Notes under the pieces: generated by a model | Told to the model about the DNA's origin: nothing | Databases searched by the model: none | The model's input: only the letters and a program-made list of their open reading frames with translations | Program-made: the position numbers and the translations under genes | Shown here: positions 27,776 to 42,213 of the stretch, in pieces | Layout of the letters: the number at the start of each line of letters is the position of its first letter | How positions within the stretch are numbered: position 1 is the first letter of the stretch | Assembly: GCA_045644125.1 (NCBI GenBank) | Contig: JAZRGJ010000185.1 | Span: 1-47,448 of the forward strand | DNA length: 47,448 nt | Source of the DNA: Eubacteriales bacterium | GTDB taxonomy: Bacteria; Bacillota; Clostridia; Oscillospirales; CAG-272 | Reading direction: 5' to 3'

Positions 27776-28756
27776 ATGGTAAGAGTAGAAAATCTCGTAA
27801 AGCGCTACGGAACCAATTATGCGCTTAACGACGTTTCATTTGAAATAGGCGAGGGCGAAGTAGTTGGACTTCTCGGCCCTAACGGCGCCGGAAAGAGTAC
27901 CGCAATGAATATTATCACGGGCTATCTTTCGACAAGCTCGGGCGCGGCTTATATTAACGGCGTGAATATACTTAAGGACCCTATAGGCGCAAAGCGCAAT
28001 ATAGGATTTTTGCCGGAGCAGCCGCCTCTTTATCCCGAAATGACGGTTGGCGAATATCTTAACTTCGTATACGAGCTTAAGGGCGTTGAAATGCCCCGTG
28101 AGGAGCATATTAACGAAATTCTTGGAACTGTCAAGCTTATCGACGTCCGTGACAGACTTATAAAGAATTTGTCAAAGGGTTACAAGCAGCGCGTCGGCAT
28201 TGCGCAGGCTCTTGTAGGTGATCCCAAGATCGTTATATTTGACGAGCCCACGGTAGGTCTTGACCCGAAGCAGATAATCGAGGTAAGAAATCTTATAAGA
28301 ACGCTCGGAAAGCGCCATACGGTAATTCTTTCAACTCACATTCTTCAGGAAGTACAGGCTGTTTGCGAAAGAGTTATCATAATCAACAAGGGTAAAATCA
28401 TCGCAGACGAAAAAACCGAGGATTTGACGAGAACTATAGAAGAGGGCTTTAAGTATGAAATAAAAATCGTCGGCCCGCAAAGAGAGGTTCTTTTCGCTAT
28501 CGAGAGAATTAACGGAGTTAAAAACGCAGTTGCAACGGGTGAGCGAGATGCGGATTCATACGCCTATATCGTTGAGAGTGAAAGAGGAATTGACGTAAGA
28601 AAATCGCTCTTCTCTCTTTGCTCCTCGAGAAACTGGGCGATACTCGGATTATCCGCTGTCGGCACTGATCTTGAATCTATTTTCATAAGACTCGTTGACA
28701 GAGCAAACGGCGTGAACTCAAATGGAAAAAATGAGAAAAGGAGAAAGGCTCACTGA
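27776..28756 (+). CDS. ABC transporter ATP-binding protein, GldA-like
   Basis: Walker A GPNGAGKST, signature LSKGYKQRVG, Walker B IVIFDEPT, LSTH; C-terminal LESIFIRLV. Confidence 0.93.
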   Translation: MVRVENLVKRYGTNYALNDVSFEIGEGEVVGLLGPNGAGKSTAMNIITGYLSTSSGAAYINGVNILKDPIGAKRNIGFLPEQPPLYPEMTVGEYLNFVYELKGVEMPREEHINEILGTVKLIDVRDRLIKNLSKGYKQRVGIAQALVGDPKIVIFDEPTVGLDPKQIIEVRNLIRTLGKRHTVILSTHILQEVQAVCERVIIINKGKIIADEKTEDLTRTIEEGFKYEIKIVGPQREVLFAIERINGVKNAVATGERDADSYAYIVESERGIDVRKSLFSLCSSRNWAILGLSAVGTDLESIFIRLVDRANGVNSNGKNEKRRKAH

Positions 28757-28772
28757 GTCCTGACAATACAAA

Positions 28773-29480
28773 ATGGGTGCAATATTTAAAAGAGAGCTTC
28801 GCTCCTATTTCACCGGAGCGATAGGCTACGTATTTTTGGTTCTCTATCTTGCGGCGGGCGGCGCTGTATTCTGCTTTACAACGCTCTTCTCGATGTCTGC
28901 CGAGGTTTCAAATTACTTCATTTATATGCTTATCTTTTCCGCTGTCGCGCTTCCTCTTTTAACGATGAAGTCGTTTAGTGAAGAAAGAAAAATCAAAACC
29001 GAGCAGCTTATTTTAACCTCCCCCGTTTCAATAAGCGCTATGGTTTTCGCTAAATTTTTTGCGGCTTATATCATGTTTGCCGCATCTATGGTTTTAACGT
29101 CGCTTTATTTCCTTTTCCTGATCCCCTACGCAACGGTTAAGATAGGTCTTCTTTTCGGAAATCTTCTTGCGATTTTGCTTGTAGGCATGGTATTTATCTC
29201 AATAGGACTTTACGTGTCCTCCCTTACGGAAAACCAGCTTGCCGCCGCAGTTGGCACGATTGCGATTATCTTCGCATTTCTTCTCGTCGGCGCTATAAGC
29301 TCGCTTATTCCCTCTTCGTACGGATTAAGATTCGTGTTTGATTTCTTTTCGGTTTTCAAACGCTTCAGCGGTTTTGCTAACGGATATTTTGACATAGCGT
29401 CCTTGTCGTACTATCTTTCCGTATCGGCAATATTCCTTTATATGACGATAAGAGTTTACGACCGCCGCCGCTACAGCTGA
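28773..29480 (+). CDS. ABC-2 type permease, GldF-like
   Basis: AIFKRELRSYF, PLLTMKSFSEERK..TEQLILTSP, SSLTENQ..AA; six TM segments. Confidence 0.9.
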   Translation: MGAIFKRELRSYFTGAIGYVFLVLYLAAGGAVFCFTTLFSMSAEVSNYFIYMLIFSAVALPLLTMKSFSEERKIKTEQLILTSPVSISAMVFAKFFAAYIMFAASMVLTSLYFLFLIPYATVKIGLLFGNLLAILLVGMVFISIGLYVSSLTENQLAAAVGTIAIIFAFLLVGAISSLIPSSYGLRFVFDFFSVFKRFSGFANGYFDIASLSYYLSVSAIFLYMTIRVYDRRRYS

Positions 29481-29495
29481 CTTACGGAGTTTTTT

Positions 29496-31070
29496 ATGAA
29501 GAAAATATTAAAGGAAATAAAAGGGTTCTTCAATAAAGACAAATGGTCGTCCGAGGGCATTTTTGCGCTTGTTGTGGCGCTTGTCTTCGTGTTCAACCTG
29601 CTTTTGACAGCCATCGTTGAAACGTTCGGTCTTTATATATACGAGAAGGACTCTACCGATTATTCCATTTCGGGCAATACCGACCATCTTTTCGAAGATG
29701 CGATAGCCGAGGGAAAAAAGATCAAAATATCTTTCTGCATGGATAAATTCGACAACGAAGGATATATCGATCACGAAACGGGTAGGCTCGTTCACAAGAC
29801 TGTTGAGGAGTTTGCCGAAAAATACCCCGGCTTCATTGAAATTGATTTTATAAACGTTATGACCCGCCGCAATAAAGACAATAAGCTCGTAGATCTTGCG
29901 AAGTATCAAAAGGATATGCGAGGCGAAGAAACCAAGGTGCTCAAAACCTCGGTTATATTTGAGTGCGGCGATAATTACCGAGTCGTAACCGACCTTTACA
30001 GCACGGCGGGCTTTGCGGATTTCTATACGCTTGACGGCTCGGGCAATCTCACCTCGTATAACGGCGAGGAGGTTGTTGCCGCTATGATGTCGTGGGTGCT
30101 TCAGGATAAGCACGAAACGGTGTATTTCACACAGTATCACAGCGAAACGGTTGATATTGCGTTTGCAAATCTTCTGGTTTGCGCAGGCTATTACGTTGAC
30201 GTTATAGACCTTAAGAATGATAAAGAGGTCGACAAGGAAACGGGTGAGAAAGTTCTCAACAAAAAGCTCCGTGAGGCCGCAATGGTTATCATTTCAAATC
30301 CGAAAACGGACTTTGAAAGAGGCGCTGTAGGCACGGGCATAGTTTCCGAGATCGAAAGACTTAGAAGTTACGTTAACGGCGGCGGAAACCTTATGGTAAC
30401 GCTCGATCCTTACGTGAAAAATCTTACGGTGCTTGAGAGCTTTATCGCAGAATACGGAATATCATTCTCCACTTCGACCGACAAGAAAACCGGCAGAGTT
30501 GCGAGAAATATCGTTAAGGATTCCTCCGGCGCTATAACTCTTGACGGATTCACCCTCGTTGCCGAGTATGCCGATAGCGATCTTGCCGAAGCGATAAACG
30601 ACAAGGTGTCGGAATATTCAAACGGCAACGTTATAATAAGAGAGGTGTCGGCGCTTGAGCTTTCCGGCAACGCAAAGCCGCTTCTCATCTCATCCGCCTC
30701 CTCCGAGCTTGAGGCGCACGGCTCCACGGTTGACGGAAAAGGAAACTATACCTTAGCCGCTTATTCCGACGTGGCGCTTGAGGGTGGCGGAAGCGCCAAG
30801 GTTTTCGTAGTTCCCTCAATATATCTTGCGGTATCCGATGCGCTCGTGAGCCGCGAATATTCAAACAAAGACTTTATTTATGCGCTTTTTGAAGAGTATT
30901 TCGGAAGCGGAAACGCTCCCTACGGCTGTAACGACGTGCTTTACGACAGCTCAACTCTTGAAAATCTCACCATGAAAAACGCAAAAATATACACAGCCAT
31001 TATAATGGCGATTCCCGTGGCATTGGCTGTCGTGGGAACGGTAGTAATCGTTAGAAGACGGCAAAGATAA
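29496..31070 (+). CDS. GldG-like ABC auxiliary component 1
   Basis: N- and C-terminal TM helices around a large external domain; YSISGNT, VYFTQYHSE (cf. YFxxGHGE), IISNPKTDF, YVNGGGNL, NKDF, ends VRRRQR. Confidence 0.8.
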   Translation: MKKILKEIKGFFNKDKWSSEGIFALVVALVFVFNLLLTAIVETFGLYIYEKDSTDYSISGNTDHLFEDAIAEGKKIKISFCMDKFDNEGYIDHETGRLVHKTVEEFAEKYPGFIEIDFINVMTRRNKDNKLVDLAKYQKDMRGEETKVLKTSVIFECGDNYRVVTDLYSTAGFADFYTLDGSGNLTSYNGEEVVAAMMSWVLQDKHETVYFTQYHSETVDIAFANLLVCAGYYVDVIDLKNDKEVDKETGEKVLNKKLREAAMVIISNPKTDFERGAVGTGIVSEIERLRSYVNGGGNLMVTLDPYVKNLTVLESFIAEYGISFSTSTDKKTGRVARNIVKDSSGAITLDGFTLVAEYADSDLAEAINDKVSEYSNGNVIIREVSALELSGNAKPLLISSASSELEAHGSTVDGKGNYTLAAYSDVALEGGGSAKVFVVPSIYLAVSDALVSREYSNKDFIYALFEEYFGSGNAPYGCNDVLYDSSTLENLTMKNAKIYTAIIMAIPVALAVVGTVVIVRRRQR

Positions 31071-31089
31071 CGAAGAAAGGATGTAATGA

Positions 31090-32769
31090 ATGAATTTCTC
31101 ACTCTTTAAGGGTAAAAAAAGAACGTTGATATTTACTCTTATAACAATGTTTTCCATAGTTATTCTTCTTGTCGGCAATCTTTTCTTAACCTATTTTTCA
31201 CCTATTAAAAGCTTGTATTTCGATATGACCTCGGAGAACTTTTACACTCTCAGCGATCCAATGAAAAGCGAAACTGCGTTTATCGACGAGCTTCCTTCCG
31301 GCGAAGAAAATCAAATTAAAATAATCTTCTGCGCAAAGCCGGACGTTTTAACCGAATCGACGGTTACAAGACTTACGTATTTTATGGCTCTTAAGCTCCA
31401 GCAAAGATATTCAAACGTCAAGGTTATATGCGAGGACGTGACTTTAAATCCCACGGCTTTCGCGCAGTACAAGGCGAATTCTTTGACGGAGATAAAAGCG
31501 AGCGACATCATAGTTTCCTACGGCGACAGATACCGCATATCTACCGCCGCAAGATTCTGGCTTTACGACCAAGGCTCGTATTTCTCCTACAACGGTGAAT
31601 ACCATATGGTTGCAATGCTTAAATCCGTAACCGCCGTTGAAAAACCTAAGGCTTATTTCCTTACGGGACATGAGGAAACCGTTTACAACCCCGCAGACCG
31701 TGAATCGCCGATGAGCATTTCAATGCAGAGCTTTGCGGACTTGCTCTATGAAAGAGGCCTTGATATTGCATTGCTCGATTTAAGCGATCCGAAAACACCC
31801 GACATCCCCGAGGATTGCGTGCTTCTTATCATCAACGATCCCAAAATTGATTTCCCCACCGATCAGACGAGCTACGACGAATTTGGAAAATTTTCCGAGC
31901 TTGATAAGATAGACAAATATCTTGTAAGCCGTCAGGGCGCGGTAATGGTTGCCAAGGATTACAGAATAACCAACCTCACCAATCTTGAAAGATTCCTCGG
32001 TGAATGGGGCATAGGATTCAGCGACACTCTCATTAAAGACGAGGGCGCGTCGCTTGATGATTCTTATACGGAAATTATAGCGGAATACAATACGAACCAA
32101 GAAAATTACAGCTATGAAATATACGGCGAGTTTGCCTCCATGTCCAGCGCTCCGAGAATGATATTCAAGGATACGGGATTTGTGAAGTGTACTTACAATG
32201 AAAGCTATGCAACCCAAGAGCAAGGCACTATGAATACGTCGAGAAGCTACGCCGATTTCCTCTTTACCTCAAATACGGCGGAAGCGTTCGCAAAGAACAG
32301 CGACGGAGAATACCGTGACCTTGCGGGCGAGGCGGGTAAATACGACCTTGCAGCTCTCGTCGTAAGAAACAATCTTCACGACACAGAGAACGTAAACAAA
32401 ATGTCTTATCTTTTCTGCGCTAACAGCAAGAGCTTTTTCTCAAACGACGTTATAGGCAACGCATACTACGCCAATTACGACGTAGTTTCTTCGCTCGTAG
32501 AGAATATTTCACGTCTTGACGTGTACGGCTCAAGCGCTCTCGGCGGCGAGTCGCTCAACTCACCTACTTACGGCGGAAAGCAGATTCACGCATCCGTGCT
32601 TTCAAACGAAGTCGTGAACGTATTTTCTCCCGATGCGAAAGAAATAATTGAAACTAACAACCCCATTACCAAATTTGATAAAACTGTTATTTCCATAATA
32701 GTTTTCGCATTCCCCGTTGCGATTGCCATTTGGGGTGTTGTCGTCAGAATAAGACGTAAATTCCTTTGA
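31090..32769 (+). CDS. GldG-like ABC auxiliary component 2
   Basis: YFDMTSENFYTLS, AYFLTGHEE, IPEDCVLLIINDPKIDF, ANYD; terminal TM ending RIRRKFL. Confidence 0.82.
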   Translation: MNFSLFKGKKRTLIFTLITMFSIVILLVGNLFLTYFSPIKSLYFDMTSENFYTLSDPMKSETAFIDELPSGEENQIKIIFCAKPDVLTESTVTRLTYFMALKLQQRYSNVKVICEDVTLNPTAFAQYKANSLTEIKASDIIVSYGDRYRISTAARFWLYDQGSYFSYNGEYHMVAMLKSVTAVEKPKAYFLTGHEETVYNPADRESPMSISMQSFADLLYERGLDIALLDLSDPKTPDIPEDCVLLIINDPKIDFPTDQTSYDEFGKFSELDKIDKYLVSRQGAVMVAKDYRITNLTNLERFLGEWGIGFSDTLIKDEGASLDDSYTEIIAEYNTNQENYSYEIYGEFASMSSAPRMIFKDTGFVKCTYNESYATQEQGTMNTSRSYADFLFTSNTAEAFAKNSDGEYRDLAGEAGKYDLAALVVRNNLHDTENVNKMSYLFCANSKSFFSNDVIGNAYYANYDVVSSLVENISRLDVYGSSALGGESLNSPTYGGKQIHASVLSNEVVNVFSPDAKEIIETNNPITKFDKTVISIIVFAFPVAIAIWGVVVRIRRKFL

Positions 32770-32812: not shown

Positions 32813-35752
32813 ATGAAAAAAATTGAAAAGGAAAAACGCATATCGAAAGGGCTGCTTGCGATAATTCTCTCCGTAGCTCTCGTCCTTACCGTTGCGGCGG
32901 TTATCATTATCAGATATGCGATAGCTCCCAAGGGCGCAGGCGCGGCGGAAAAGATTCCTCCGGTGCCGCTTGAGGGCGAAGGTGTAGCCAACGGAAGCCT
33001 TATGGCTTATCCTTTAATGGAAGAATCGAAAATTCAGTCCATCGTTATTGAAAACGATTTGGGTAAATTCGGTATGAGCCGTCCCGACGGCGGAGGAAAC
33101 TTTATCCTCTATTACGACGACGGAAAGGGAGGATTCACCGAGTTTAGACCTAATATATGCGACGTTGACGATGACTTCAGCTATTCGTCGCTTTATTCCG
33201 TTGAAATGAACGACGGATTCGGAGGCGTAACCAAGCTTAAATATCTTTGCATGGCTCTTATGTATCCTTACGTTGAAGAAAGAATCGAGCTTATCCCCGA
33301 AGAAAAAGACGCGCAGCTCGACGCTTACGGTCTTGCGAAGGGGGAATACGAAACCGTATATTTCTCTTATCTCGATGAAAACGGAAACGAAAAGTCACAC
33401 GAAATACAAATAGGTGACAAAACCTCTCTTGAAACGGGATATTATCTTAGAGTCGACGGAAGAGATTGCGTTTACGCAAGCTTCCAGAATCAGTTTGATT
33501 ACGCTTTGGGCGACTTCTTCTCGTTTATCAAGCCTCTCGTCATCTCTCCCGGTATTCCGGAAGATACCGTAATAAGCGCATATCTTACCACGAATTATAA
33601 CCAGTGGAAAAACGAAGTGCATAATAAAGATGGCGAGCTTGTAGAGCCCGGCTCCCGTGTTATCGTTTTCGCTGATACTATAGTGCCCGTTGACAGAAGC
33701 ATTAAGGATTTTGTTCAAGGCGGATATATAAACGACAAAGGAAAAAGTATTGAATTCGACCTGTCGAAGCTTAAAGGAAAGGCAGAATATCAAAGACTTA
33801 TAAACGCTCTTTCCGGTAAAGCCGTTTCAAAAGAAAACTTGCCAAACGAAATCGCAGTTACTCTCGTTGGCGGGGGCACGGCAATTGATTTCGGCGAGGC
33901 GCTCGGGTTGAGATACGACTACAGTATAGTTTCGATAGAGGCTATTCTTACGGACGACGGTGAAATTTCCGCGCCCGGCACGCCGGTCGGCTCGAATAAT
34001 CTTTTGAAGATTTCTTACAGATTGAAAATCTCCGGCGAAGAAGCTTCGCAAAACGTTCTTCACGCGGTGGTTGATTTGACGGACGCAGAGCTTCCCGAAA
34101 GCTTCAAAGCGGCTTTGAGGGCTGCTTCGGTAGGAGAGCTTTCCGAGCCTATAAACCTTTGCGTAGATTATTCCAAAGCCAACGCTCACAAGCAGAGCGT
34201 AAAATACGTTATAACCGAGCTCGTATCGGTGTTTAACGAAAAGGGAATCGAAATTCCTGCCGTAACCGATAAAAGTATCGTTACTTACAGATACCGTTTC
34301 ATGATAAACGGCAAATACGATGACGAAGAGCATCTTGCAACCCTCAATCTCGGCGCGGATACGAGCGAGGCGGGCGCAAAGATAAAGGCGGCGCTTAAAG
34401 GCAAATCTCCGTCACGCGAGAGCTTGTCTATAGTCGCTGACGAATATATCGAATATTGCGAGTATTTCAAGGACTTCGTCACTTATTCAATCAAAAAGGT
34501 TGAATATTTCGTAACGAAAAAAATCGTCAGCTCATTCCGCTTCCAAAACAGATCCGAAAGAGATCCCTTTTTCGGTGAATCCATTTACGAAAATACTATC
34601 GACGAAGTTGCCGGCGATGACAACGCGTCAAAAAAATATTCAATATACGGTCTTAACAACGCCGTTTGCCAGAGGGTTGTAAATATTCTCACGGGTATCA
34701 GCGAGGATTCAAGCTCCAACCCGACGGGACTTTCGGGAACGGAAACCGTTGCCGTCGGTCTTACGCCCGAGATTATGGAAAAGTACGAGCTTTATGCGTA
34801 TACGGTTTACTTTGAGTTGCCGCGCGGCATATACGCCGTGGAAAACGAAGCCGAAGACGTAGTTGACGACTATGCGTGGTATGAAATTCTCGGCTTTACC
34901 CTCCATATAAGCGAAGAATTTGAAGACGAAATAACAGGAGCGAAGTACAGATTCGTAGCCTCCGACCTTTACGACTTGGTAGCGAAAGTGGACGCTGAAA
35001 AGTTCGTATTCTTGAAATACGACTTCGTAAACTTCTTCGCAAGACGTGAAATGATGCTTACCGACGTTGCGTATATGCAAGAAGCAACGTTTGAGCTTTG
35101 CTTCGAGAACCTTAAGGGTGTTTACAGAATGTATCTTAATCACGAAGAGGTTTATTGGGGCAATGACGGAAAGCGTTATGAATACGAAGACGACGTTCCC
35201 GAAGGCGTTGGAATTGAGAGCGATTTCGACGAGATAACGGTCGTTGTAAGCCCTATGGGCGATTGCACGCCAAACAAGCTTGTCGATTACATTAACAAGC
35301 ACACGTCGTCGGGCCTGGTTTCGCTCACGCAGCTTTATAATAAGCATACGGGCGACGGAAAAAACAATGTTTTCCTGGCAAACGATCCCCTCGGCACCTC
35401 TAACTTCAAAAAGCTTCTTGAAAATATATATCTGACAGGCTACAGCGGAGTAATTTCCGAGGGCGAGCAGGCAAAAATTCTTGCGAGCAACGCTATGGTT
35501 TTCAGAATGTCTTACAAGATTGAATCGTCTGCAGACAGATACGTGTACGAGTTTTACCGTTACGACGAAGGTCGTGTAATGGTCAGACTTTATCAGGCAA
35601 GCTATAACGACGAAACGAACACGTATTCCGCTCCCACGACGGCTGTTTCGGATTTTTACATCTCAAATTTCGCATTCAGAAAAATAGTAACCAATTTCGT
35701 TAAGCTTTTGAACGTCGAGATGATAGATCAAGAAGTCGGCTATCCCGAATGA
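32813..35752 (+). CDS. Large membrane-anchored DUF4340-like protein with putative FKBP-like inserts
   Basis: N-terminal TM; KIQSIVIEN and LDAYGL...IQIGDKTS..GYYLRVDG resemble the DUF4340 proteins that follow gldG genes; central segments resemble FKBP strand/helix patterns. Confidence 0.65.
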   Translation: MKKIEKEKRISKGLLAIILSVALVLTVAAVIIIRYAIAPKGAGAAEKIPPVPLEGEGVANGSLMAYPLMEESKIQSIVIENDLGKFGMSRPDGGGNFILYYDDGKGGFTEFRPNICDVDDDFSYSSLYSVEMNDGFGGVTKLKYLCMALMYPYVEERIELIPEEKDAQLDAYGLAKGEYETVYFSYLDENGNEKSHEIQIGDKTSLETGYYLRVDGRDCVYASFQNQFDYALGDFFSFIKPLVISPGIPEDTVISAYLTTNYNQWKNEVHNKDGELVEPGSRVIVFADTIVPVDRSIKDFVQGGYINDKGKSIEFDLSKLKGKAEYQRLINALSGKAVSKENLPNEIAVTLVGGGTAIDFGEALGLRYDYSIVSIEAILTDDGEISAPGTPVGSNNLLKISYRLKISGEEASQNVLHAVVDLTDAELPESFKAALRAASVGELSEPINLCVDYSKANAHKQSVKYVITELVSVFNEKGIEIPAVTDKSIVTYRYRFMINGKYDDEEHLATLNLGADTSEAGAKIKAALKGKSPSRESLSIVADEYIEYCEYFKDFVTYSIKKVEYFVTKKIVSSFRFQNRSERDPFFGESIYENTIDEVAGDDNASKKYSIYGLNNAVCQRVVNILTGISEDSSSNPTGLSGTETVAVGLTPEIMEKYELYAYTVYFELPRGIYAVENEAEDVVDDYAWYEILGFTLHISEEFEDEITGAKYRFVASDLYDLVAKVDAEKFVFLKYDFVNFFARREMMLTDVAYMQEATFELCFENLKGVYRMYLNHEEVYWGNDGKRYEYEDDVPEGVGIESDFDEITVVVSPMGDCTPNKLVDYINKHTSSGLVSLTQLYNKHTGDGKNNVFLANDPLGTSNFKKLLENIYLTGYSGVISEGEQAKILASNAMVFRMSYKIESSADRYVYEFYRYDEGRVMVRLYQASYNDETNTYSAPTTAVSDFYISNFAFRKIVTNFVKLLNVEMIDQEVGYPE

Positions 35753-35856: not shown

Positions 35857-37851
35857 ATGAAGAAGATAATCGTCATTTTGATCGCTGTTATTCTAATTAT
35901 AAGCATTGCTTTGATAAGTATTTTTTCTTTCACACGCAATAAACCCGACAACACGGATGAAGAGAGCGAGGATGAGTATTACAGCATTGCTGACGAAGAT
36001 AGCATGGCTCCGTACGCAAGCTTGAAGGACAAAGCCGCTTTTGAAGCAGCGTTAAAGGCTCTTGTAATTGAAGACAGTGAATACGCAAAGGATGAAGCTG
36101 AAATAGAGAGCGCGGCTTGGGAAACCTTATATAATGATTTTGCCTTTGCATGCGTAAGACAAGGCGTAAGACAAATTACAGGAACTCCTTCGGCAAACGC
36201 AGTTGTCTTTTATAACTACTACTACACCTATACCGATTCAAATAACACAGTCTATTATTTCAACGACAACATGAGGTCCGATAAATCCGTAAGCGTTACG
36301 CTCGGCCTCAAAGATCTTACCGATTTTGAAAAGCAGCTTAAAGACGTTATTACGGCTACGAAGATAGACGATTACGTTTATTCCACCAGAACTACCGGCG
36401 TTGCCCGGGAAAACGACGTAGCATACGTTAGCTATACGCTTGAAAAAAACGTTGAAATTGATGGAGTAAACAAACAGGTACGTTATACGGTCGTTAATGA
36501 AAGAATAGAGCTTAAGCGCGGGACCTCGGCTTTTGTTGATTATCTTATCGATAAGAACGTAGGAACGCATATCTCAGATTTTTCAGACGCCGGTTTGGGC
36601 GAAACGTACAAAAACATCAAGATCGCATTCGTTTCCGGCGGAAACGAAATATGCGCTGTTAAAGAAGTTACCTATACCGAAGAAAAGAAAGTTCGTGACA
36701 TATACGGTGTTGAGCATAATCTTAAGGATCAGGAGCTTACTTATCATATATATCCCGTTAATTACGTAGATGTTCCTGAATTTACCGCCGAAAACTTATT
36801 AAACTTCGTTTTCGGCAAAGACATTACTTATGATGCCGTTGAACAAATTCTTTTCGGCAAGAGCTTTTCCAAAAAAAGCGAGGAAGAAAAGAATGCAATT
36901 CTTATTAACTACACAGCCAATCACTTGACAGGCTCAAACGTTACACTTAAAGATCTGGTTGAATCACTTAAGACTTTCCATGCCGAATATGAAGCGGCTC
37001 TTAATATGTATTATAAAGCCAAAGCTGATGAAGATACAAAAAGGGCGCTTGCCATGACAGCTGAAGCAAAGTTGGCTGCGGCAAATCCCGATGATGCGAA
37101 TTACAATGATTTGCAAAAAGCGCTTGACACCGCAAGGTTTGATCTTCAAGTGGCAGAACAAGCTAGCATGGCCGCTGAAAAGCGCTTCGAAGAAATGGAA
37201 AACGGAAGAAACGATTCCGTAAATCTCCTTGTGCAAATTACCAACGCTAATGCAAATGCCGGCGTAGGATACAATCTTATTGACGGTTATTTTGAATTAG
37301 CTTGTGAATATCTTCTCGATCGTTACAACGAAGATATCAGAGCGAAGCTTTCCGAAGAGATTTCAAAGCTTTTTGATGAGCACGTAGAAATCAAAAAGCT
37401 TCCCGAAAAGGCTCTTGAGTCGGCAGAAAATGAAATCGTAGACGGCTATAAACGAAGCTTCAATAGTGACATGGATCCCGACACGGGTAACAGCTACTAT
37501 TCAGATTTTAACGGCAAATTCAAGGAATTCCTCAAACAAAAGCTTAATGCGTCAAGTTATGAAGAAGCTATGAGCATAATTGCGCAAGAAGCGGAGGACG
37601 AGGTAAAAGAAGCCGTTATTATTTACACTCTTAGCGAAATATACGAAGTCCTTGCAAGCGATAAGGAGTTCGAGGAGTATGTTGGCAGCGATATGATGAC
37701 GCAAATTTCCGTGACTTGGTACGGAGAAAACTATGTACGTTACCAATATCAGTCCGAGAAGCTGACGGATTATCTTCTTTCTTACGAGAAGGATGCTGAC
37801 GGCAAGTACGTATATCTTTACGTCGCATATACCATCGTTGACAAGAAGTAA
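35857..37851 (+). CDS. Membrane-anchored, divergent trigger-factor-like protein (paralog A)
   Basis: N-terminal hydrophobic anchor without Cys; LKDQELTYHIYPVNYVDVPEF; C-terminal KKLPEKA...EAEDEVKEAVIIYTLSE...ASDKEF resembles the trigger factor C-domain; paralog of 38039..40036. Confidence 0.6.
   Translation: MKKIIVILIAVILIISIALISIFSFTRNKPDNTDEESEDEYYSIADEDSMAPYASLKDKAAFEAALKALVIEDSEYAKDEAEIESAAWETLYNDFAFACVRQGVRQITGTPSANAVVFYNYYYTYTDSNNTVYYFNDNMRSDKSVSVTLGLKDLTDFEKQLKDVITATKIDDYVYSTRTTGVARENDVAYVSYTLEKNVEIDGVNKQVRYTVVNERIELKRGTSAFVDYLIDKNVGTHISDFSDAGLGETYKNIKIAFVSGGNEICAVKEVTYTEEKKVRDIYGVEHNLKDQELTYHIYPVNYVDVPEFTAENLLNFVFGKDITYDAVEQILFGKSFSKKSEEEKNAILINYTANHLTGSNVTLKDLVESLKTFHAEYEAALNMYYKAKADEDTKRALAMTAEAKLAAANPDDANYNDLQKALDTARFDLQVAEQASMAAEKRFEEMENGRNDSVNLLVQITNANANAGVGYNLIDGYFELACEYLLDRYNEDIRAKLSEEISKLFDEHVEIKKLPEKALESAENEIVDGYKRSFNSDMDPDTGNSYYSDFNGKFKEFLKQKLNASSYEEAMSIIAQEAEDEVKEAVIIYTLSEIYEVLASDKEFEEYVGSDMMTQISVTWYGENYVRYQYQSEKLTDYLLSYEKDADGKYVYLYVAYTIVDKK
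36259..36389 (+). repeat. 131-bp near-identical block shared by paralogs A and B (copy 1)
   Basis: Aligns ungapped to 38402-38532 with 6 mismatches by eye. Confidence 0.85.
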
Positions 37852-38038: not shown

Positions 38039-40036
38039 ATGAAAAAGAGAATTATCAGTTTGATTCTTGTTCTTGTTATGCTCTGCTTCGTGTTCGCAAG
38101 CTGCGATAGCCCAAGCATCGCTAACGAGAAAATTGCTTCTTACGCAAGCTTGAAAAATAAGGAAGATTTCGAGGCGGCTTTAAAGGCTCTCTTTGTTGAT
38201 GACGGCGAGTTTAGTACCGACGATGGCACAAGAGTTAACGAAACGTGGGATAGCATCTATAGCGATCTTGCTTCCGTTCTCACGAAAGACGGTGACAAGC
38301 TCACCGCCGGCACGCCTTCCAAGAACGCAGTTGTTTACTACAACTATCGTTACACCTACACCGAAACCAATGCGGAAACCGGCGTAAGCACCACGTTCTA
38401 CTTCAACGACAACATGAAGTCCGATAAATCCGTAAGCGTTATGCTCGGCCTCAGAGATCTTACCGATCTTGAAAAGCAGCTTAAAGACGTTCTTACAGCT
38501 ACGAAGATAGACGATTACGTTTATTCCACCAGCACCACCGGCAAAAGCCGTGAAAACGACGTAGTATACGTTAGCTACAAGTACACCGAAACCGTTGTTG
38601 TAGGCACGGATGAAGCAACCGGTAATCCTATAACCGAAACCAAACCCTCCGTTACCGTAACCTGCGAAAGAATTGAGCTTAAGAAGGGCGTTTCCGCTTT
38701 CGCTGACTATCTTATCGATAAGGACATAAACAAGACCACTATCGAGAATTTTGAAGATCCGGTTACCAAGACTAAGTACGAGGGAATCAAAATCGATTTC
38801 CTTGCAAGCGGAAACGAAATCTGCACCGCTAAGGAAGTTACCTATACCGAGAAAAACGAAGCTACCGATATATACGGAAAGAAGCACGACCTCAAGGATC
38901 GTGAGCTTACCTACTACGTATATCCCGTAAACTACGTTGAAGTTCCCGAGTTTAACGCAGAGAGCTTTGTAAACGTTATTCTTGACGACAGCATTACTTA
39001 CCAAGCAGTTACGAGAGTTCTTTTCGGAGAATATTTTGAAGATCAGAGCGAAGAAGCAATGAACGCTATCCTCGACCTTTATAAGACCACTTCCGAGGAA
39101 AAACTCGGCACCGGCGAAAAAGACCTCACTCTTAACGCATTGGTTGAAAAATTAGACCTCGCTCAGACTGAATACGCATCTAAGCTTGAGGCAAAGGAAA
39201 AGGCAGAGACCGACTACAACAACAAGAAGACGGCGCTTGAACTTGCTAAAAAGAATTACGATGCAAAGCCTGACGATGCCGAGCTTAAGACCAAGTATGA
39301 AACCGCTGTTAGCAACGAAACCGCAGCGGCAACCACTCTTACCAACGCAACGAATGCTTTTGCAGCAGCAGAAATAACAAGAAACTACTACGTAAATTCT
39401 CTTATTACCGTTACCGAAGCAAATAAGAAAGACGGCGAGAGATTCAATCTTACCGACGGATACTACTGGCTCACCTTTGAATATCTTCGTGATAACTACA
39501 ATGAAGAAATCAAAGCTAAGTTTGCTAAAGAGGTTTACACTCTCTTCAACGACACCTACGTAGAGGTTAAGGGACTTCCCGAAAAGGTTGTTAAGACAAC
39601 TGTAGACACCATCGTTGATAACAAGAAGTATGAATTCTACAACGGCACGTACGACACAACCACCAAGGAGAGCAACTACGCTCACTTTAAAGGCAACTTT
39701 AAGGAGTATCTTAAGGCAAAAGTTCCTAACTCAAACGGAAGCTACGATTTTGCTATGAGAAGCATTCAGCAGGAAGCTGAAGGATACGTTAAGGAAGTAG
39801 TTATCATCTACGCTATCAGCGAAGCTTACGGTCTTCTTGTAAGCGACAAGGATTTCAAGGCTTACATGAAGGATGAAAACAATTCTTACGACGCTAACGC
39901 CGCTTATTACGGTGAAAACAACGTTCGTTACGCATATCAGTTTGACGTAATTATGAAAGAGCTTCTCACCTACGAAGAAGTTGACGGCGCATACGTTTAC
40001 AAGTATCTTAACGCAAATAACCTTAAGGCAAAATAA
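38039..40036 (+). CDS. Lipoprotein, divergent trigger-factor-like protein (paralog B)
   Basis: Signal peptide with lipobox FASC; [23 protein letters not shown]-like segment; [16 protein letters not shown]; C-terminal KGLPEKVV...[28 protein letters not shown]. Confidence 0.65.
38402..38532 (+). repeat. 131-bp near-identical block shared by paralogs A and B (copy 2)
   Basis: Aligns ungapped to 36259-36389. Confidence 0.85.
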
Positions 40037-40101: not shown

Positions 40102-40560
40102 ATGAAAGAAGTATCACTTTACACCGACGGCGCTTGCAGGGGGAATCCGGGGCGCGGCGGTTGGGGCGCGATTTTGGTTTTTGGAAAATACGAAAAAGAA
40201 ATGTCAGGCGGCGAGCCGATGACGACGAATAACAGAATGGAGCTTCTTGCGGCAATATCAGGCCTTGACGCCTTGAAAGAGCCGTGTGAGGTAACGCTTT
40301 ATTCGGATTCCAAGTATCTTGTTGACGCATTTCTTCTCGGCTGGGTGGAAAACTGGCGAAGCCACGGCTGGAAAAGGGGCAAGGATGAATTGAAAAATCC
40401 TGACCTTTGGCAAAAGCTTTATTCACTCACAAAAACTCACAATGTGAATTTCGTTTGGGTTAAGGGGCATAACGGGCACGATTATAATGAAAGGTGCGAC
40501 AAGCTCGCAACCGCATTTGCCGACAGCTTTCCCGAAGAGGATACGAATCCTCCGTTTTGA
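40102..40560 (+). CDS. rnhA: Ribonuclease HI
   Basis: [37 protein letters not shown]...NERCDKLA. Confidence 0.97.
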
Positions 40561-40584: not shown

Positions 40585-42213
40585 ATGGCAAAACAAACAA
40601 ACAAAAGCGCCTCTTATAAAAAAGCGCAAGCTCAGGCTGAGGCTCAAAAAACGAAGGCGAAGACTAAAAATAAGAAAATTTTGATAATAGTGAGCGCCGC
40701 ATTGGCAGTAGCGCTCGTTGCGGGCTTGATTATCGGGCTCGTTGCGTGCAACGCAAATAAAGAAGTAGACTACATTAACGACGATTTGTCGAAATACGTT
40801 TATATATCCGAAGATGATTATAAAAACTTCCCCGTAACAAGCCCTTTGTTAACGGTTGACGAAAGCGACGTTCGGGTTGAGATAAATAAGCTTCTTGTAA
40901 AAAATAAATCCAAAGAGGCTCTTTACAACGGCGCTTCGGTTCGCCCGGAAAGCTATACTATAAAAATCGGCGACGTAGTTAATATTCGATACAGAGCCTA
41001 TACTACGGATGAAAACGGAATAACGAGCGAGCTTGCGGGGACAAGCAATTTTACGAAGGAAAGCCCCACCGCGCTTGAAATAGGCTCGGGAACGTTTATC
41101 AAGGGCTTCGAAGAGGGGCTTATCGGAAAGAAGCTTCACGAAAAATCCTTGGAAATAGCCAAAACCGGAACTGTCAAAAGACGTGACGTCGTTTACATTT
41201 CTTACAGCGCATTTTTGCCCGACGGAACTCCAACGACAGTCAGCAACGTAAGAATCGATACGAGAGATCAGGCTTCCGTTGATAAAACTTTCGGCGCGGG
41301 ATTTACCGATTTTCTGATCGGTAAAGTTATAGGCGACAAGGGCGTGACGCAAACCTTCCGCGTTGAAGGCGAAACCGTAGACACGGTTTATTACGAAATG
41401 AAAATCGATTACGTCGTAAGAAGCGCTGAAAAACCTTATCTTTTGGACGTTCAATTCCCTGTCGATTATAAGGAAGCAAGTCTTAGAGGCGTTAAGGCAA
41501 CCTTTGAGGTTTACGCTTCAACGGCGGTTATTTATAAATCTACTCCCGAATGGAGCGATAGCTTCGTTAGCGAAACTCTTAAGGAAACGTTTGAAACTCT
41601 TTCCGCTTACGAGGGTGAAACTCTTACTGAAAAATATGAAAACAAGATTCTTGCCGAGCTTAATGCCGCTAAGGAAGAAGCCAATAAAACTTTGATACAA
41701 GAAGATATGTTCAGACACTATCTTTCAAAGGCGAAGGTTAAAAAGCTTCCCAAGGCCGAGGTTAAGAAAAAGTACGATCAATATATCGCCCAGGCGAAAC
41801 AGCTTTATGATCTTTACTATGTTTTGAGTTATGAAAGCTTTGATGAATTTGCGAACGAATATTTCCCACATTCCGCAAATCAAAGCTGGCAGGATGCGGT
41901 AACGGCGGCCGCTGAATCCGCTGTAACGGAGACTTTGGTTTTCTTCTATATAATAAGAGAGGAAAACATTATTCCGAGCGCCGAAGAATACGAACTCATT
42001 TATAACGAATCCTTGAAAGAGTATAAGGAATATTACGTTAACGACAAGTACAAATCTGAAATTGACGCTTGTGAAACCGAAGAGGAAAAGCCTGCGAAAA
42101 TTCTTGAAATCGAAAGCAGAGTCCTTAAAGATTACGGAGAGCAATATTTCCGTGAATTAACGTACTATAAGTATGGAATGGAGCGCATTTTGGTATTTGC
42201 GGATTTGAAATAA
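40585..42213 (+). CDS. Membrane-anchored FKBP-type PPIase / trigger-factor-like protein (paralog C)
   Basis: Basic N-region plus hydrophobic helix ending LVAC; IGDVVNIRY, LEIGSGTFIKGFEEGLIG, FPVDYKEASLRGVKATFEV (trigger factor FKBP domain); C-domain KKLPKAEV...AESAVTETLVFFYIIREENI; no GFRxGK ribosome-binding loop. Confidence 0.85.
   Translation: MAKQTNKSASYKKAQAQAEAQKTKAKTKNKKILIIVSAALAVALVAGLIIGLVACNANKEVDYINDDLSKYVYISEDDYKNFPVTSPLLTVDESDVRVEINKLLVKNKSKEALYNGASVRPESYTIKIGDVVNIRYRAYTTDENGITSELAGTSNFTKESPTALEIGSGTFIKGFEEGLIGKKLHEKSLEIAKTGTVKRRDVVYISYSAFLPDGTPTTVSNVRIDTRDQASVDKTFGAGFTDFLIGKVIGDKGVTQTFRVEGETVDTVYYEMKIDYVVRSAEKPYLLDVQFPVDYKEASLRGVKATFEVYASTAVIYKSTPEWSDSFVSETLKETFETLSAYEGETLTEKYENKILAELNAAKEEANKTLIQEDMFRHYLSKAKVKKLPKAEVKKKYDQYIAQAKQLYDLYYVLSYESFDEFANEYFPHSANQSWQDAVTAAAESAVTETLVFFYIIREENIIPSAEEYELIYNESLKEYKEYYVNDKYKSEIDACETEEEKPAKILEIESRVLKDYGEQYFRELTYYKYGMERILVFADLK

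Follow-up and report, generated by a model that had tools for sequence, protein, structure and literature searches.

Proteins of the DUF4340 family are predicted to be ABC transporter subunits in one paper (PMC13712998), and a second describes a DUF4340 domain as essential in one Verrucomicrobium gene (PMC12283558). The family is uncharacterised in the searchable literature, with no known substrate, and we found no mention in the literature searched of FKBP-like modules, or of a tandem array of such modules, in DUF4340 proteins. The papers listed for GldG and GldF structure dealt only with gliding and T9SS. A DUF4340 match was present in 120 of 200 sampled Clostridia genomes. The canonical members consist of about three units of ~140 amino acids (aa); they measured 447-517 aa in the four operons checked, and the open reading frames of the class sample were mostly ~420-570 aa. 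Here we analysed a window of 47,448 nucleotides (the whole of contig JAZRGJ010000185.1, positions 1-47,448 of the forward strand, assembly GCA_045644125.1) from an Eubacteriales bacterium of the CAG-272 lineage, and focused on a gene that encodes a 979-aa DUF4340-family protein (Table 1). We propose, with a probability of about 0.65, that residues ~272-577 of this protein are three degenerate FKBP-fold copies, kin of the peptidyl-prolyl isomerase (PPIase) domain of trigger factor and SlyD, which were duplicated from one module and would form a non-enzymatic, interlocked extracytoplasmic spacer or docking platform. What would be new is the acquisition of an FKBP-fold module array by a DUF4340 accessory protein.

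We compared the 979-aa protein with the canonical DUF4340 proteins of GldG-type ABC-2 operons, with which it shares an N-terminal anchor, a first DUF4340 unit and a place directly after the GldG-like and ABC-2 genes (this placement holds in the window, for 72-76 of the 80 related loci and for all four canonical operons). Its sole Pfam match is DUF4340 (PF14238; residues 163-244, positions 33299-33544; E = 5.6e-7), and the profile score of 30.4 bits (32.4 bits in the genome scan) exceeds the family cut-off of 25. Using a canonical profile built from 20 DUF4340 proteins of other Clostridia (448-497 aa), residues 11-243 matched canonical residues 2-182 (hhalign, probability = 97.7%, E = 2e-12), and residues 650-924 gave a faint match to the later canonical units (E = 0.009, probability = 4.6%) with the YGL and FL motifs in register. 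An original prediction, made from the sequence alone, had placed the segment of interest between two DUF4340-like parts; its N-terminal side is well borne out, whereas its C-terminal side is weak. Unlike the canonical proteins, which are without an FKBP-like module and carry two to three units in ~450-570 aa, the protein holds one partial Pfam unit in 979 aa. The array accounts for ~300 of the ~500 residues beyond the canonical length, and it thus explains the unusual size, as had been suggested, in part and not for the rest.

The segment singled out by the original prediction (positions 33626-34520) corresponds to residues 272-569, and all the peptide strings quoted from it were found where it had placed them, in one forward frame within the open reading frame of the protein. 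Searches for relatives of the protein yielded 70 close ones and 293 representative clusters. Repeat profiles were cut from a 61-sequence family alignment (R1, residues 272-382; R2, 383-476; R3, 477-572), and the three aligned mutually end to end and in register over 84-93 columns (hhalign; R1/R3, E = 1.9e-6, probability = 90%; R2/R3, E = 1.2e-5, 81%; R1/R2, E = 9.7e-5, 58%). Control alignments of the repeats with the N- and C-terminal parts of their own protein gave E = 0.0049 to 0.64. In the AlphaFold2 model, R1, R2 and R3 have a common order of elements, namely strand-strand-helix-strand-strand. The three segments are real internal repeats, in agreement with the prediction (mutual E of 1e-4 to 2e-6, controls at least 0.005). 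The commonest conserved residues of the array are tyrosines (Y370 in 244, Y402 in 240, Y453 in 238 and Y368 in 231 of 244 sequences). We also observed that Y305, E376 and H417 are each kept in ~80% of the 244 sequences, with mutual couplings among the strongest, and that D421 is likewise conserved; these four residues (window positions 33725-34065) may form a polar cluster at the R1/R2 junction.

The full-length protein was modelled by AlphaFold2 with a mean predicted local distance difference test score (pLDDT) of 87.5 and a predicted template-modelling score (pTM) of 0.80, and residues 267-575 alone (91 sequences) reached a pLDDT of 96.7 and a pTM of 0.89. The modelled array shows an antiparallel sheet round a short helix, with the strand order of FKBP12 and trigger factor. 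We compared this model with 48,161 PDB representatives using VIA-align and found that 35 of the 50 matches listed were FKBP-type by title, with the trigger factor PPIase domain ranking top; three others were the C-terminal domains of GreA, GreB and Gfh1, two were parvulins, and for 10 the title leaves the matching chain unidentified. AlphaFold followed by structure comparison had been proposed as a check of the original prediction, and VIA-align returned FKBP-type domains, not immunoglobulin-like or other folds. The beta-grasp fold, which has the same element order, was considered and set aside, with no ubiquitin-like entry among the 50 matches listed. Immunophilin structures were among these matches (3jym_A, 3o5d_B and 1p5q_A). 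Multi-FKBP immunophilins, such as wheat FKBP73 and FKBP51/52 (FK1-FK2), contain tandem FKBP-fold domains, some of which are non-catalytic. In contrast to the array, however, they are eukaryotic and cytosolic, consist of independent beads recognisable by sequence and have tetratricopeptide repeat partners, and we found no evidence for common descent of the two.

The sequence support for an FKBP relationship appears weak but consistent. Against a profile of 31 genuine trigger-factor FKBP_C domains from Clostridia genomes, R2 gave E = 1.2e-3 (hhalign, probability = 19%, 78 in-register columns), with controls at E = 0.042, 0.17 and 0.83. In this low-confidence alignment, Y402, F431, Y453 and an aromatic residue of the last strand lie opposite conserved aromatics, which are conserved Tyr residues in the case of Y402 and Y453. 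We then considered the downstream trigger-factor-like protein, hereafter referred to as paralog C (542 aa), which has a membrane anchor, an FKBP_C domain and a Trigger_C match (E = 2.6e-4, slightly short of the cut-off). The FKBP_C domain falls into two parts, residues 123-185 (trigger-factor profile 6-59, E = 3e-22) and 288-314 (profile 65-91, E = 5.5e-10), and between them is nested a degenerate FKBP-like module of ~100 residues (190-287). This nested module was matched by R2, R3 and R1 at E = 6e-6, 9e-5 and 5e-3, respectively (hhalign; controls, 0.07-0.25), and itself matched the 31 trigger-factor FKBP_C domains at E = 1.7e-4. Judged by these alignments, the best link from the repeats to trigger factor is indirect, via the nested module of paralog C, and R2 is the repeat nearest to FKBP-like modules. 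The original prediction had likened the repeats to the paralog C segment IKIGDVVNIRY...FEEGLIGKK; the resemblance to this protein was recovered for the nested module and not for that segment. Like R2 and R3, the nested module is degenerate and follows the helix of another FKBP unit, and it is the nearest sequence relative found, encoded in the same operon. It is nevertheless a single module within a bona fide FKBP_C domain followed by Trigger_C, whereas the array has three modules in tandem and no Trigger_C.

In the model, the repeats look interlocked and not like separate beads. Each FKBP superposition spans residues ~268-275 to 566-572, yet aligns only 70-92 residues (VIA-align), which suggests that the FKBP-like unit seen by the aligner is composed of the first hairpin and helix of R1 together with the last hairpin of R3. 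We further examined the top 320 pairs from mean-field direct coupling analysis (DCA) of 244 family sequences (319 columns, effective number = 225). Pairs that run from the last strand of a repeat to the first strand of the next one (R1 being taken as next after R3) numbered 8, 6 and 2 for R1, R2 and R3 (16 in total), against 1, 1 and 2 pairs (4 in total) joining the last and first strands within one repeat. In addition, 12 pairs couple strand 261-270 with 565-576, suggesting that the array comes together at its two ends, as an inserted body should. Given these superposition spans and the couplings from last strand to next first strand, the three FKBP-like domains of the original prediction do not look independent. 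A hairpin-swapped, ring-closed arrangement is what we tentatively infer instead, the DCA signal being noisy. As far as our searches show, such a ring architecture is undescribed for FKBP domains. A more far-reaching version is tentative and, in our estimate, doubtful: the array might be a closed hairpin-swapped FKBP-like ring, in which each unit combines the C-terminal hairpin of one repeat with the helix and N-terminal hairpin of the repeat that follows, and the GldG/DUF4340 ABC system of the genus might be a machine dedicated to handling proteins outside the cytoplasm, equipped with membrane-anchored trigger-factor-like chaperones of its own.

Several results weigh against degenerate FKBP-fold copies and their interlocking. 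Beyond the noise of the couplings, the hairpins expected from the model received just 1-2 pairs each. The VIA-align Z was below 8 throughout, and the fold match is not assignable to any single repeat, as only the alignment ranges underlie it. Foldseek, also put forward as a check of the prediction, found no FKBP in the PDB: the 309-residue model had no match at E ≤ 0.001 and no FKBP among the top 50 (best E = 7.7e-3; lectins and xylanases at template-modelling scores (TM) ≤ 0.16), and the full-length model returned DDB1-type entries (TM ~0.06). Pfam FKBP_C (PF00254) was matched neither by the whole protein at E up to 1 nor by the three segments and the region at E up to 10; because the array fails this sequence test, we did not count it among the FKBP family. 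PDB sequence searches with HMMER, using the family profile and the region alone, found no FKBP match. Against the trigger-factor FKBP_C profile, R1 (E = 0.013) and R3 (E = 0.019) were no better than one control (N-terminal part, E = 0.042). The predicted FKBP resemblance holds by fold and is missing from the Pfam profile search, with weak similarity to trigger factor seen for R2 and control-level values for the other two repeats. Finally, when R2 was the query of a language-model feature search, 27 of the 30 matches were clusters labelled DUF4340 (90-121 aa; score = 0.93-0.94, only 110-118 of 256 features in common). These clusters are probably fragments of the same family; alternatively, the repeats may have arisen from DUF4340 itself.

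A unit derived from the DUF4340 lineage or another source, whose simple strand-strand-helix-strand-strand fold converged on that of FKBP without kinship, would accommodate the feature search, but we consider it very unlikely. R1, R2 and R3 matched canonical DUF4340 at E = 0.24, 0.026 and 0.23, values worse than those obtained with the nested module of paralog C, and a DUF4340 origin was rejected on this comparison. Moreover, the list of structure matches is almost purely FKBP-type and not a mixture of folds.

We next compared the modules with the PPIase domains of known chaperones for sequence features tied to activity. The 31 trigger-factor domains share a conserved FIPGF-type motif before and in the helix; R1, R2 and R3 have non-conserved residues in its place. 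With the FKBP signature missing, this motif included, catalysis is unlikely, and the original description of the modules as non-catalytic is plausible. The fold match to PPIase domains, together with the aromatic residues that line up with those of trigger factor, could be read as a sign that the modules are active prolyl isomerases of the FKBP type, which would fold proteins after export. This is highly improbable given the unmatched FKBP_C profile, the replaced motif and the genome-wide FKBP_C search, in which only the true trigger factor and paralog C matched. Trigger factor, SlyD and SlpA also differ from the modules in being cytosolic chaperones, whereas the modules are a tandem, apparently interlocked triple in a membrane-anchored accessory protein of a transporter. 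Its positively charged N-terminus and single anchor suggest, under the positive-inside rule, that the bulk of the 979-aa protein after the anchor is extracytoplasmic. The likeliest role of the modules would be that of a scaffold or docking array outside the cytoplasm, without catalysis.

The distribution of the array was examined in searches that each started from a single-protein query. Of the 101 genomes sampled from the genus of the window, 54 had the array (13 of the 38 high-quality ones). It was present in 1 of 97 genera of the family sample, and it was absent outside this genus among the 134 genera of the class sample. All five same-genus genomes examined that had no array match hold orthologs of 616-727 aa, and gene order around the short orthologs was unchanged in 3 of 3 operons checked. 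In four of the five (616-670 aa), the family-profile alignment runs to residue 245-281 and resumes at 473-482, a gap which indicates that these orthologs retain one R3-like module; the fifth aligned to residue 306 and then from 574, with ~110 unaligned residues between. Alignment with shorter natural orthologs, a step suggested in the original prediction, thereby delimited the insert. Repeat hidden Markov models detected R1-R2-R3 in 154 of 165 relatives of at least 900 aa, R1-R2-R2-R3 in five, R1-R1-R2-R3 in one and fewer repeats in five. The four-module relatives measure 1009-1114 aa and have an extra R1 (P0090) or an extra R2 (P0077, P0099, P0102, P0129 and P0139). The genus therefore contains a module series of one, three and four. 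As far as alignments can tell, the array is an insert and a recent, lineage-specific expansion.

Such variation in copy number within one genus, from one module in the 616-670-aa orthologs to four in 6 of the 165 long relatives, would also be seen with a pure length-setting spacer, that is, a rigid stalk that binds nothing and raises the C-terminal half above the membrane, for instance across the cell wall. The rigidity of the model (pTM = 0.89) and the mostly buried-type character of the conserved residues, as in Y370 and Y402, are in line with it, and we regard this as the main rival, active isomerases and a convergent fold being minor ones. It is nonetheless unlikely: the modules co-occur with trigger-factor-like neighbours, both being missing from 4 of 4 canonical operons, which hints at a common task, and the conserved, coupled polar residues Y305, E376, H417 and D421 are unusual for a mere spacer, though they could be interface residues.

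The gene of the 979-aa protein is the fifth in a co-directional cluster, and its neighbourhood is conserved. Among the 80 related loci, which derive from metagenome-assembled genomes of uncultured Clostridia, Eubacteriales and Oscillospiraceae (many from animal gut by record title), the upstream genes were found in 72 (ABC ATPase), 72 (permease), and 73 and 76 (GldG-like), and the downstream genes in 78 (paralog A/B-like), 72 (RNase H) and 71 (paralog C-like). By contrast, each of the four canonical DUF4340 operons, two of which belong to the same order, carries one GldG-like gene and lacks the module; trigger-factor-like, FKBP and RNase H genes were likewise absent from the 17-20 kb covered. 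Modules and trigger-factor-like neighbours, both in the operons of the genus and both missing from the canonical ones, hence appear together. The two GldG-like genes (29496-32769) stand in tandem in the operon of this genus. Paralogs A and B (664 and 665 aa) are likewise in tandem and 47% identical; their family and paralog C have the FKBP region of the latter in common (hhalign, probability = 97.9%, E = 5e-13), and the repeats matched the A/B family weakly (E = 0.005-0.29). Most related loci have one copy of the A/B-type gene and this window has two, of which paralog B carries a lipoprotein-like signal (…FASC). We also noted that the RNase H gene, an odd partner for an extracytoplasmic system, lies amid envelope-protein genes and occurs in one-module operons as well.

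Table 1. Features of the 979-aa DUF4340-family protein and of its operon (window coordinates)
Feature	Position	Strand	Residues	Basis or remarks
Gene of the 979-aa DUF4340-family protein	32813-35752	+	1-979	Open reading frame; Pfam DUF4340 match; holds the repeat array
N-terminal membrane anchor	32846-32923	+	12-37	Hydrophobic helix in AlphaFold2 model; Lys/Arg-rich N-terminus before it
First DUF4340 unit	32960-33622	+	~50-270	Pfam; hhalign against canonical DUF4340
Repeat R1	33626-33958	+	272-382	Strands 282-292, 305-316; helix 324-333; strands 347-357, 365-379
Repeat R2	33959-34240	+	383-476	Strands 397-406, 416-421; helix 429-437; strands 441-454, 459-474
Repeat R3	34241-34543	+	477-577	Strands 489-498, 507-512; helix 519-528; long hairpin 540-577
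C-terminal region	34544-35749	+	578-979	Residues 650-924 (34760-35584) weakly DUF4340-like
ABC ATPase	27776-28756	+		Upstream; Pfam
ABC-2 permease	28773-29480	+		Upstream; Pfam
GldG-like ABC_transp_aux protein	29496-31070	+		Upstream; Pfam
GldG-like ABC_transp_aux protein	31090-32769	+		Upstream; Pfam
Paralog A	35857-37851	+		Downstream, conserved; no Pfam match
Paralog B	38039-40036	+		Downstream, conserved; no Pfam match
RNase H	40102-40560	+		Downstream, conserved
Paralog C	40585-42213	+		Downstream, conserved

These findings can be joined into one putative course of events. The host protein would serve as accessory subunit in a GldG-type ABC-2 transporter operon that belongs to a single, species-rich genus of uncultured Clostridia from the gut. 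In this protein, a single module after the first DUF4340 unit, as in the same-genus orthologs, may have been duplicated to a tandem array. The modules would have lost the FKBP_C signature and, most likely, any enzymatic role. In the predicted structure they would form one rigid body: each repeat would lend its C-terminal hairpin to complete the sheet of the repeat that follows, and the last hairpin would close back on R1. Located at the external face of the membrane, this body could serve as a spacer or as a docking platform, which may hold a polypeptide, or the co-encoded membrane-anchored trigger-factor-like proteins, beside the transporter.

DUF4340/GldG-type ABC systems are widespread. The operon of this genus has gained chaperone-type modules within its accessory subunit, along with two or three genes for membrane-anchored trigger-factor-like proteins, a hint that polypeptides are handled at the cell surface by this branch at least. 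In this way, the array would link a so far unexplained family of transporters to extracellular protein handling. The natural series of one, three and four modules offers ready constructs for probing the role of the array, and the interlocked arrangement, if true, would be a new way to build with the FKBP fold.

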